Source: Escherichia coli (GTDB taxonomy: Bacteria; Pseudomonadota; Gammaproteobacteria; Enterobacterales; Enterobacteriaceae). From it: a stretch of 64,000 nucleotides of DNA. Positions within the stretch are counted from its first letter, which is position 1; each line of letters begins with the position of its first letter. The stretch lies in the NCBI RefSeq assembly GCF_009931435.1, contig NZ_CP043414.1. One strand, written 5' to 3'. Below the pieces are notes generated by a model, which saw nothing but the letters and a program-made list of their open reading frames with translations, was not told where the DNA came from and did not search any database. This document shows, piece by piece, positions 28,809 to 58,163 of the stretch. Made by a program: the position numbers and the translations under genes.

Positions 28809-31361
28809 TCAGAACAATTCCTGTGCCTCGCCATTATCGATAATGGTCGTTCCCACCTCGTGCACCGCCTGTTGTGTCGGCTGTGTACCTTCGATGAAAT
28901 ACTCTTCGCGGCTGTTGCCACCATTAGCTAACTGCCCGGTGCTGCGATCGATATTCACCGTCACAATACCCGGCGGCGGCGTCAGCGGCTGTTCCGGCAC
29001 GCCTTCAAGAACGGCTTTCATATAAGCGTCCCATGCAGGCTGGGCACTCTTGGCACCGCCTTCGTAACCTGAGATCTGATCTTTAATCGCTCCGGAAGCC
29101 GTTGTATGACCGAGATTACGGCGGTGATCATCAAAGCCAATCCAAACCGAGGTCACAACGCCCGGACCGTAACCCGAGAACCACGCATCTTTCGAACTGT
29201 TAGTGGTACCCGTTTTTCCGCCGATATCATGCCGTTGTAAATCACGACCTGCTCGCCAGCCGGTACCCTGCCAGCCTGGCTCACCAAAAATATTGGTGTT
29301 CAGGGCGCTCTTAATCAGGAATGCCAGCGGAGTGTTGATGACGTGCGGTGCGTACTCCTGCGCGCCAGTCTTCGCGACTAACGCCTGATTCGCCTGCTCC
29401 AGCTGCGGCATTGGTACAGAAGCATTCTGCTGCTCGCGGGAGATAGCGACATCTTCAACATCGTTATTTTCCAGCACGTTCGATTTCTGCGTATCACCGT
29501 AAATCACCGGAATATCGCATTCCGGGCAGGCTACTTTCGGTTTCGCTTCGAAAATCACGCCGCCCTGATCGTTTTCAATTTTGCTGATAAACCACGGGTC
29601 CACCAGGAAGCCGCCGTTCGCCATTACCGCGTAGCCGCGCGCCACCTGCATTGGGGTGAAGGACGCTGAACCCAGCGCCAGCGATTCGGTGTGGACAATG
29701 TTTTGCGCCGGGAAGCCGAAGCGTTGCAGATATTCTGCAGCGTAGTCGACGCCCATCGCCCGCATTGCGCGTACCATCACCACGTTTTTCGACTGGCCCA
29801 GTCCCTGACGTAAGCGAATTGGACCGGCATACTGTGGTGGTGAGTTCTTCGGCTGCCAGTCAGAACCGGCACCTGCATCCCAGCGGGAAATTGGCACATC
29901 GTTCAACATACTTGCCAGCGTCAGACCTTTATCCATCGCCGCGGTGTAGAGGAACGGTTTGATGTTGGAACCTACCTGACGCAGTGCCTGGGTGGCGCGG
30001 TTAAACTTGCTCTGATTGAAATCAAAGCCACCGACCAGCGCCATAACGGCACCGTTTTGCGGATTGATCGACACCAGCGCCGAGTTCACTTCCGGCACTT
30101 GTGCCAGCCACCATGTATCGCCAACCTGACGAACCCAGATTTGCTGACCCGTTTGCAGAACATCGGTCACTTTACGCGGCGTCGGTCCCTGCTGAGTATC
30201 CGAACGGTAAGGACGCGCCCAGCGAACGCCTTCCATACTCAATGCGACGGTCGACCCGTCCGCCAGCATCGCCGTCGCTTCCTGAGGATTGGCGCTGGTG
30301 ACTGCGGCAGGCAGCAGCGGACCATAGGTCGGCAGCGCCTTCAGCGTATCGGTAATCTTGTTGTTATCCCACGCCGATTCGCCCACTTTCCACAGCACAT
30401 TTGCCGGGCCGCGATAGCCGTGGCGCATGTCGTAGTCCAGCACGTTATTACGTACTGCCTGCTGTGCGGCCTGCTGTACTTTGCGGGTGATGGTGGTGTA
30501 AATGCGATAACCGTCTTCATAGGCACTTTCGCCATAACGGTTATACATCTCCTGGCGCACCATTTCGCTCAGGTACGGCGCAGAGAAAGCAATCTCCGGC
30601 GCGTGATAGTTAGCGTTAATCGCCTCAGTGCGTGTCTGATCGAACTGTTGTTGGGTGATATACCCTTCATCCAGCATCCGCGACAGTACGACGTTACGCC
30701 GCGCGACGGCACGATCCATTGAGTAGAGCGGATTAAAGGTGGAAGGCGCTTTCGGCAGCCCGGCTATCACCGCCATTTCGTTCAGCGTCAGTTGGTCGAC
30801 CGTTTTACCGAAATAGACTTGTGCCGCAGCACCGACACCATAGGCGCGGTAACCGAGGTAAATCTTGTTCAGATAAAGCTCGAGGATCTCGTCTTTCGTC
30901 AGCAACTGTTCAATGCGAATCGCGAGGAAGACTTCCTTAATCTTACGCATCAGCGTGCGTTCTGGACTGAGGAAGAAGTTTCTCGCCAGCTGCTGGGTAA
31001 TGGTACTCGCCCCTTGTGACGCGTGGCCGGAGAACAGCGCCACACTTGCCGCACGGAAGATCCCCACCGGGTCAACGCCGTGATGCTCGTAGAAGCGGCT
31101 GTCTTCCGTCGCGATAAAGGCTTTCACCATCTCCGGCGGGATTTGATCCAACGTAACCGGAATACGACGTTTCTCACCGTATTGAGCAATCAGCTCGCCA
31201 TCGGCGCTGTAAATCTGCATCGGAATTTGCAGGCGAACATCTTTTAATGTCGCCACATCCGGCAGTTGTGGCTCGATGTAGCGGTATAGGCCATAAATCG
31301 AGCCTGCTCCCAGCAGAATGCAACAGACTGCAAGGATCAAAAAATACTTTACGAACTTCAC
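28809..31361 (-). CDS. mrcA: penicillin-binding protein 1A
   Basis: 850 aa from a GTG start (VKFVKYFLIL); ORF track shows an 8-codon upstream extension; glycosyltransferase and transpeptidase motifs. Confidence 0.93.
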   Translation of the reverse strand: MKFVKYFLILAVCCILLGAGSIYGLYRYIEPQLPDVATLKDVRLQIPMQIYSADGELIAQYGEKRRIPVTLDQIPPEMVKAFIATEDSRFYEHHGVDPVGIFRAASVALFSGHASQGASTITQQLARNFFLSPERTLMRKIKEVFLAIRIEQLLTKDEILELYLNKIYLGYRAYGVGAAAQVYFGKTVDQLTLNEMAVIAGLPKAPSTFNPLYSMDRAVARRNVVLSRMLDEGYITQQQFDQTRTEAINANYHAPEIAFSAPYLSEMVRQEMYNRYGESAYEDGYRIYTTITRKVQQAAQQAVRNNVLDYDMRHGYRGPANVLWKVGESAWDNNKITDTLKALPTYGPLLPAAVTSANPQEATAMLADGSTVALSMEGVRWARPYRSDTQQGPTPRKVTDVLQTGQQIWVRQVGDTWWLAQVPEVNSALVSINPQNGAVMALVGGFDFNQSKFNRATQALRQVGSNIKPFLYTAAMDKGLTLASMLNDVPISRWDAGAGSDWQPKNSPPQYAGPIRLRQGLGQSKNVVMVRAMRAMGVDYAAEYLQRFGFPAQNIVHTESLALGSASFTPMQVARGYAVMANGGFLVDPWFISKIENDQGGVIFEAKPKVACPECDIPVIYGDTQKSNVLENNDVEDVAISREQQNASVPMPQLEQANQALVAKTGAQEYAPHVINTPLAFLIKSALNTNIFGEPGWQGTGWRAGRDLQRHDIGGKTGTTNSSKDAWFSGYGPGVVTSVWIGFDDHRRNLGHTTASGAIKDQISGYEGGAKSAQPAWDAYMKAVLEGVPEQPLTPPPGIVTVNIDRSTGQLANGGNSREEYFIEGTQPTQQAVHEVGTTIIDNGEAQELF

Positions 31362-31480
31362 TGGAAATTTCCCATTTAGTTTCATTTGGGCAGTTTATAA
31401 ACAAACGCGCGGTAGTATAAAGGCAAGCCAGACGCATTGATATACCCGTCAGAGTGACGGGTGATAAGGAGATCATCACA

Positions 31481-57336: not shown

Positions 57337-57403
57337 TCTCCCGGCGTAACCCGGATTTGCCGCTTATACTTGTGGCAAATGGACACGTTCAGGGAGGCAT
57401 CAA

Positions 57404-57571
57404 GTGAAGAAACTCACCGATAAGCAAAAGTCCCGTCTCTGGGAGCTTCAGCGTAATCGTAATTTCCAGGCCAGTCGCCGTCTTGAAGGCGTCGAGATGC
57501 CATTAGTCACTCTTACTGCCGCAGAGGCTTTAGTGCGCCTTGAAGAGCTGAGGAGGCACTATGAGCGATAA
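57404..57571 (+). CDS. yhfG: small protein YhfG (Fic partner, antitoxin-like)
   Basis: 55-aa ORF with GTG start after AGGGAGG RBS ([22 protein letters not shown]...); stop overlaps fic start. Confidence 0.8.
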
Positions 57572-58163
57572 ATTCGGCGAAGGGCGCGATCCGTATCTTT
57601 ATCCTGGCCTTGATATCATGCGTAACCGGCTGAACATCCGCCAGCAACAGCGGCTGGAACAGGCCGCTTACGAAATGACGGCGCTGCGTGCTGCGACCAT
57701 TGAGCTTGGTCCGCTGGTGCGCGGTTTACCGCATTTGCGCACTATCCATCGCCAGCTGTATCAGGATATTTTCGACTGGGCGGGGCAACTGCGTGAAGTT
57801 GATATTTATCAGGGCGATACGCCTTTCTGCCACTTTGCTTATATCGAAAAAGAGGGCAATGCCCTGATGCAGGATCTGGAGGAAGAAGGGTATCTGGTTG
57901 GCCTGGAGAAAACGAAGTTCGTCGAGCGGCTGGCACACTACTATTGTGAAATCAACGTCCTGCATCCCTTCCGGGCGGGAAGTGGTCTGGCACAGCGGAT
58001 CTTCTTCGAGCAACTGGCGATTCATGCTGGTTATCAACTGAGCTGGCAGGGTATCGAAAAAGAGGCCTGGAATCAGGCAAATCAGAGTGGGGCAATGGGT
58101 GATCTCACTGCGCTGCAGACGATATTTAGCAAAGTGGTAAGCGAAGCCGGGGAATCTGAGTAA
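57561..58163 (+). CDS. fic: Fic-domain AMP transferase
   Basis: 200 aa; Fic motif [12 protein letters not shown]. Confidence 0.94.

Follow-up and report, generated by a model that had tools for sequence, protein, structure and literature searches.

GTG start codons of mrcA and yhfG in Escherichia coli, and an in-frame ATG upstream of mrcA that is most likely non-functional

Introduction

Where does translation of the cell-wall synthase PBP1a begin? In the window, by which is meant the whole 64,000-nucleotide stretch of Escherichia coli DNA that was analysed, the longest open reading frame for mrcA runs over 28809..31385 (minus strand) and comprises 858 amino acids, counted from an ATG at 31385..31383. 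The ORF is bounded upstream by a TAA in frame at 31397..31395, and has its first start codon in that ATG. Its 5′ codons are ATG AAA CTA AAT GGG AAA TTT CCA, and then come GTG AAG TTC GTA AAG TAT (the protein reading VKFVKYFLIL), so that the GTG at 31361..31359 lies exactly eight codons 3′ of the first in-frame ATG and gives a product of 850 amino acids. The features at issue are as follows.

28809..31361, minus strand: mrcA coding sequence, for PBP1a; 850 codons plus stop; a RefSeq CDS of 2553 nt in three genomes
31359..31361, minus strand: mrcA GTG initiation codon; conserved, the point at which codon periodicity begins, and aligned with the start of distant orthologues
31383..31385, minus strand: upstream in-frame ATG, start of the longest ORF (858 aa); found in 26 of 80 species; in-frame stops; no Shine-Dalgarno pairing

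An earlier note on this DNA took the GTG to be the mrcA start, and reported a second GTG start, that of yhfG, elsewhere in the window. We hold it very probable that both proposals are right, i.e., that mrcA is translated from GTG 31361..31359 to give 850 residues with the ATG unused, and that yhfG is translated from GTG 57404 to give 55 residues.

Identity and annotation of mrcA

The encoded protein has, in order and all far above cut-offs, the domains PF00912 Transgly (residues 55-229), PF17092 PCB_OB (316-425) and PF00905 Transpeptidase (429-633). Its N-terminus, MKFVKYFLILAVCCILLGAGSIYGLY, is, as read from the sequence and with orthologues alike, a short cytoplasmic tail that leads into a single hydrophobic anchor, right after the initiator. 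Though the window comes from a different strain of E. coli, 98.7% identical to K-12-type genomes across the 601 bases tested, K-12 mrcA (ponA, b3396; NP_417855.4; PBP1a, 850 aa) is identical in its start region (GCCCAAATGAAACTAAATGGGAAATTTCCA GTG AAGTTC...), has the same annotated GTG and an equal domain set, and shows no relevant difference. Over the 601 bases compared, the region is present in 5425 of 5426 complete E. coli genomes, and strain Z0117EC0005 is 100% identical to the window. RefSeq annotates the GTG as the start in MG1655, DH1 and Z0117EC0005 (2553-nt CDS, 850 aa), and the same ...CCCAAATGAAACTAAATGGGAAATTTCCA stands before it in all three. A length of 850 residues is also reported in the original ponA sequence paper and in UniProt P02918.

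The placing of the start at 31359..31361, eight codons past ATG 31385, was thus correct in its coordinates and agrees with RefSeq, and both GTG starts, of mrcA and of yhfG, are already in current reference annotation and are not new. Would a gene caller that favours the longest ORF go astray here, as had been claimed? For mrcA it does: the mechanical ORF list for the window gives 858 amino acids, an 858-aa E. coli sequence matching exactly (WP_202598143.1) stands in public databases beside the 850-aa form, and 858-aa MrcA forms have been deposited for Salmonella as well.

Conservation on either side of the GTG

For comparison, 80 Enterobacterales mrcA loci were assembled, one genome per species, from Escherichia to Yersinia, Serratia, Pantoea and Mixta. 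As a back-translated pattern that includes the initiator Met cannot match GTG, the loci were found by other patterns, and the set is therefore unbiased with regard to the start codon. The aligned first codon is GTG in 80 of the 80 species. To find a GTG in frame close to an ATG is in itself nothing out of the ordinary; the conservation of this one exceeds chance. At -24, where E. coli has its ATG, the codon is ATG in 26 species, GTG in 10 and TTG in 9; the other 35 include six with CTG, ATT, ATA or ATC and three with TGA. That 45 of the 80 have an NTG-type codon there is to be expected from shared ancestry, though minor initiation at this place may occur. Column entropy by codon phase is 0.23/0.13/0.78 on the 3′ side of the GTG, a clear coding signature, and 0.68/0.80/0.58, with no periodicity, in the eight codons upstream. 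The three bases of the upstream ATG are among the least conserved of the region (48%, 65% and 79%).

More distant orthologues (Vibrionaceae, Shewanella, Pseudoalteromonas, Pasteurellaceae and others) align with the GTG at their first residue and open with M-[K/R]-x-x-K and then a hydrophobic anchor, a few database entries carrying unrelated N-terminal extensions that come from gene callers. Where the DNA of distant loci was inspected the start codon is GTG in eight of nine, Haemophilus pittmaniae alone having ATG, in a set that is not an unbiased sample, the loci having been chosen among proteins already called from the GTG-aligned residue. The GTG start of mrcA is kept across much of the Gammaproteobacteria.

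Could the ATG at 31385 nevertheless be the true start, PBP1a then being a protein of 858 residues with an extra N-terminal MKLNGKFP? In its favour, no start codon of the ORF precedes it, ATG is a stronger codon than GTG, and forms of that length have been deposited for both E. coli and Salmonella. However, the ATG is missing in 54 of the 80 species, four species (L032, L044, L065 and L076) have in-frame stops within the eight upstream codons, one of them (L065) with a 1-nt insertion as well, the stretch lacks coding periodicity, the ATG lacks Shine-Dalgarno pairing, distant orthologues begin at the GTG-aligned residue, and RefSeq uses the GTG. By the comparative data the ATG as sole mrcA start is effectively excluded, and we find the 858-residue reading scarcely credible. 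The earlier note had proposed conservation of the eight upstream codons as the check on its own choice, and the outcome, with ATG in 26 of 80 species, stops in frame and no periodicity, favours the GTG. The ATG at 31385 is, on this comparison, most likely a non-functional start.

Ribosome-binding signals and the leader

Within those eight codons one stretch is well conserved.

31367..31375, minus strand: conserved block ATGGGAAAT, at -14..-6; 88-100% conserved per position, with a GGGA core at 31370..31373

Since the block falls within the eight codons, it gives rise in translation to an apparent ‘LNGK’. Its conservation is of a nucleotide-level, non-coding pattern, and is best read as that of a ribosome-binding region. 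Pairing with the 3′ end of 16S rRNA is worth -4.2 kcal/mol for the GTG; the last base of the GGGA core is 8 nt before the GTG, and pairing covers mRNA -11..-8, with its end 7 nt from the GTG. For the ATG at 31385 the corresponding value is +0.7 kcal/mol, i.e., none. The Shine-Dalgarno-like GGGA is weak but conserved, and distant GTG-start loci of Vibrionaceae, Shewanella and Pseudoalteromonas retain GGGA or AGGA as a core at about -13..-9.

The leader is A/U-rich and, with an MFE of -11.2 against a shuffled mean of -15.4, less structured than controls. Little structure is usual for initiation regions. No conserved RNA fold was found in it (alifold energy -0.02), and with that value, and an E. 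coli MFE weaker than that of shuffled controls, RNA structure was rejected as the cause of leader conservation.

Is it then possible that Escherichia, Salmonella and Citrobacter use both codons, a minor 858-residue form being initiated at the ATG independently of a Shine-Dalgarno and the 850-residue form being the major one? An A/U-rich, weakly structured leader (MFE -11.2 vs -15.4) favours initiation of that sort, the ATG is kept in 26 of 80 species, and co-expressed N-terminal proteoforms have been reported to be common in E. coli (PMC13245402). Against this, the extension is without a selection signature. Nor is a PBP1a doublet known, in contrast to that of PBP1b, and we count this against dual initiation too. 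The longer form is also not reported in the TRAINSPOTTER, INRI-seq, tetracycline profiling or Giess et al. datasets, or in the text of the Ribo-RET preprint. Overall, use of both codons seems very unlikely.

A relevant comparison is with another E. coli gene of the kind, mrcB. The two are alike in being class A PBP genes in which more than one codon close to the 5′ end is an in-frame candidate start, and mrcB (ponB) yields two PBP1b forms from alternative in-frame starts. For mrcA, in contrast, no sign was found of the second candidate, the ATG, being used, and that ATG is not conserved.

An overlapping five-codon ORF

The conserved block begins with an ATG of its own, in another frame.

31358..31375, minus strand: out-of-frame 5-codon mini-ORF, ATG GGA AAT TTC CAG TGA, whose TGA overlaps the mrcA GTG (GTGA)

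A different explanation of the conservation is then that this mini-ORF, MGNFQ*, is translated from the ATG at -14, and that PBP1a synthesis depends on coupling of termination to reinitiation rather than on the weak Shine-Dalgarno. In Enterobacterales its start is ATG in 79 of 80 species and GTG in the other, its TGA is present in 80 of 80, and the spacing is fixed. However, the Val-Lys codons of mrcA make the TGA obligatory, Shine-Dalgarno pairing is lacking at the mini-ORF ATG (+0.4 kcal/mol), and the conserved block reaches equally far on either side of the GGGA. Outside Enterobacterales the frame is broken in one distant locus (L085) by a 1-nt deletion, three others (L086, L088 and L091) have no start codon at that place, and in Vibrionaceae and Shewanella the ATG is ACG or absent while the GGGA/AGGA core stays. 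As the main cause of ATGGGAAAT conservation the mini-ORF was rejected, being lost in distant taxa where the GGGA core persists, and translational coupling through it we consider very unlikely.

The hofM-mrcA intergenic region

In the RefSeq annotation hofM lies 119 nt upstream of mrcA on the opposite strand, which is the E. coli hofM/pilM synteny. Of the nine distant loci, seven (L085-L088 and L091-L093) have a PilM_2 gene as the divergent neighbour of mrcA, the upstream gene in the remaining two (L089 and L090) being without a Pfam hit or not looked up.

31387..31445, minus strand: conserved non-coding block, -84..-26, between hofM and mrcA (TATATCAATGC..CTGGCTTGCCTTTATACTACCGCGCGTTTGTTTATAAACTGCCCA); most positions at least 97% identical in Enterobacterales

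This 59-nt block upstream of mrcA is more conserved than mrcA itself. It is probably promoter or regulatory DNA, and shows no conserved RNA fold. By eye there are candidate promoter elements, TATACT at -58..-53 and TTTATA-N16-TATAAA; a sigma-70 scan gave no convincing mrcA promoter. A match to the Rfam family asponA was a fragment of 14.7 bits, vs a gathering score of 113, and was treated as noise.

Two CRP-S sites were predicted by Cameron and Redfield for the divergent hofM (yrfD) promoter (PMC1635313). Codons 1-20 of mrcA show strong suppression of synonymous variation; they adjoin, and partly overlap, the stretch with the predicted CRP-S sites (PMC1635313). Might the start of mrcA be a conserved translational throttle, in which the GUG, the mini-ORF (AUG GGA AAU UUC CAG UGA) and the constraint on codons 1-20 together set PBP1a output through termination-reinitiation, and/or might the region have been shaped by a divergent Sxy/CRP-S hofM promoter reading antisense through the mrcA start? 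We judge such a composite to be very unlikely.

The experimental record for the MrcA N-terminus

MrcA is absent from the TRAINSPOTTER N-terminomics table, though nearby genes are listed (PMC13245402). This absence is plausibly due to its N-terminal tryptic peptides, which would be very short or fall within the membrane anchor. In the supplements of Cappable-seq and SMRT-Cappable-seq, and in those of INRI-seq, tetracycline ribosome profiling and Giess et al., neither mrcA nor any MG1655 coordinate with 35228 or 35208 as its first digits was found. The text of the Ribo-RET preprint does not mention mrcA, and a literature search on ponA, mrcA or PBP1a together with start codon or GTG yielded nothing relevant. 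PBP1a entries in the PDB are without the N-terminus, and hence uninformative on the start.

yhfG and fic

How does the second GTG compare?

57404..57571, plus strand: yhfG coding sequence, GTG start at 57404..57406; 55 codons plus stop; RefSeq start the same; Pfam YhfG
57391..57397, plus strand: yhfG Shine-Dalgarno AGGGAGG; duplex of -11.1 kcal/mol with the 16S 3′ end; 6-nt spacer
57561..58163, plus strand: fic, its ATG start overlapping the end of yhfG by 11 nt; in the ORF list, RefSeq and Pfam (Fic)

The RefSeq CDS is 168 nt from GTG 57404. PF10832 (YhfG) covers residues 2-55, corresponding to profile positions 1-54 of 54, so that the family begins right after the initiator. The inhibitory motif of antitoxin-like partners of Fic proteins is defined as (S/T)xxxE(G/N). 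YhfG carries S-R-R-L-E-G, within QASRRLEGV, and the only ATG in frame, codon 32, is downstream of it. The protein is a YhfG family member, an antitoxin-like partner of class I Fic proteins.

The known E. coli yhfG (b3362; P0ADX5; PDB 5JFF/5JFZ with Fic; EcFicA in PMC5033356) shares with that of the window its length of 55 residues, the same GTG, the fic overlap, the match to Pfam YhfG over its full length and S-R-R-L-E-G, and the two proteins, that of the window and the crystallised one from K-12, have two amino-acid differences near the C-terminus. The crystallised YhfG chains (PDB 5JFF, 5JFZ) begin, after the tag, at the GTG-encoded residue. In the TRAINSPOTTER table b3362 has an annotated GTG start with a GTG-initiated N-terminal peptide of 11 residues, and its start is flagged as backed by Ribo-RET and INRI-seq (PMC13245402).

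The proposal that yhfG starts at GTG 57404 after AGGGAGG was accordingly right in its coordinates, RefSeq has the same start, and an N-terminal peptide has been published (PMC13245402). What does not hold is its companion, that a longest-ORF caller would mis-set this start as well: no other start codon stands between the upstream stop, TAA 57347..57349, and the GTG, and only a caller restricted to ATG would fail.

Discussion

The preferred reading, that both genes are initiated at GTG, may be set out as follows. The mrcA GTG would be read as formyl-methionine, leading to an 850-residue PBP1a with a short cytoplasmic tail, M-K-F-V-K, ahead of the membrane anchor, and the upstream ATG would be within the untranslated leader, or even upstream of the transcript. 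The weak conserved GGGA, located 8 nt upstream within a leader that is A/U-rich and unstructured, is proposed to serve initiation at the GTG, which we infer to be the only or main mrcA start in vivo. For yhfG, initiation at GTG 57404 after a strong AGGGAGG would give the 55-residue antitoxin-like partner of Fic.

What follows from this? The true N-terminus of PBP1a is relevant to those who build fusions or deletions, as 858-aa versions still circulate in databases, and beyond such annotation hygiene the GTG starts of mrcA and yhfG matter little. As to the organism itself, a weak mrcA start may limit PBP1a output, and low translation of PBP1a may have been selected for, as is suggested by the deep retention of GTG together with a weak signal for ribosome binding.

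The start codon of mrcA and the codons that follow it

The gene mrcA encodes PBP1a and is read from the minus strand starting at the GTG at 31359..31361. Of the 89 gammaproteobacterial loci sampled, 88 have GTG as the first codon of mrcA; nine of the 89, the more distant ones, were picked from proteins whose called start was already aligned to the E. coli GTG. The sampling covered Enterobacterales, Vibrionaceae, Shewanella, Pseudoalteromonas and Haemophilus, and it is only in Haemophilus that ATG is found. Such retention suggests that selection favours a weak start codon.

31302..31361, minus strand: suppressed synonymous variation (wobble-position entropy), mrcA codons 1-20

Wobble-position entropy is 0.29 for codons 1-10 and 0.53 for codons 11-20, compared with approximately 1.2 across most of the following 120 codons, and nucleotides 1-16 do not vary among 81 sequences. 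As synonymous variation is so strongly suppressed, an overlapping function at the nucleotide level is suggested for codons 1-20, in translation initiation or in the promoter of the divergent neighbour, hofM (yrfD).

Is the short reading frame that overlaps this start of significance?

31358..31375, minus strand: out-of-frame mini-ORF, ATG GGA AAT TTC CAG TGA, its stop overlapping the mrcA GTG (GTGA)

Its ATG is retained in 79 of 80 Enterobacterales species, and in more distant taxa the mini-ORF is disrupted or missing; most likely the stretch is just the weak ribosome-binding region of mrcA.

The arrangement of yhfG and fic

The other gene with a GTG start, yhfG (57404, plus strand), runs into fic.

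57561..57571: yhfG-fic overlap of 11 nt, the fic ATG (57561) preceding the end of yhfG

A Shine-Dalgarno sequence, GAGGAGG (-12.1 kcal/mol), is located within yhfG, and it is in this coupled arrangement that the genes of toxin-antitoxin-like pairs are usually found.

The hofM-mrcA gap and the divergent promoter

31387..31445, minus strand: conserved non-coding block of 59 nt, -84..-26 relative to the mrcA GTG

In an alignment of 80 Enterobacterales species most positions of this block are at least 97% identical, and it is more conserved than mrcA coding sequence. Within it are TATACT, the inverted pair TTTATA-N16-TATAAA and a 10-bp palindrome, GTTTATAAAC; neither a conserved RNA fold nor an Rfam family was found for it, and its probable role is that of shared promoter or regulator DNA. 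Directly upstream is an inverted repeat, in a stretch whose sequence is variable among the other genera aligned.

31448..31466, minus strand: 8-bp inverted repeat, ACCCGTCA-CTC-TGACGGGT, in the hofM-mrcA intergenic region

A weak Rfam match within mrcA was treated as noise, its 14.7 bits being set against a gathering score of 113.

31207..31232, plus strand: match to asponA (anti-ponA RNA, RF02812), E = 0.063, 26 of 295 model positions covered

With a DNA fragment of the yrfD (hofM) promoter, Cameron and Redfield (PMC1635313) showed that CRP binds the two CRP-S sites predicted there.

31205..31330: the yrfD (hofM) fragment, mrcA +32..+157 (+1 being the first base of the GTG)

The whole fragment falls within the mrcA coding region, where weak TGCGA-N6-TCGCA-like matches, with three mismatches each, are present at +50..+65 and +131..+146. 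Given the location of the CRP-bound fragment, hofM transcription induced by Sxy may run across the start of mrcA in the antisense direction.
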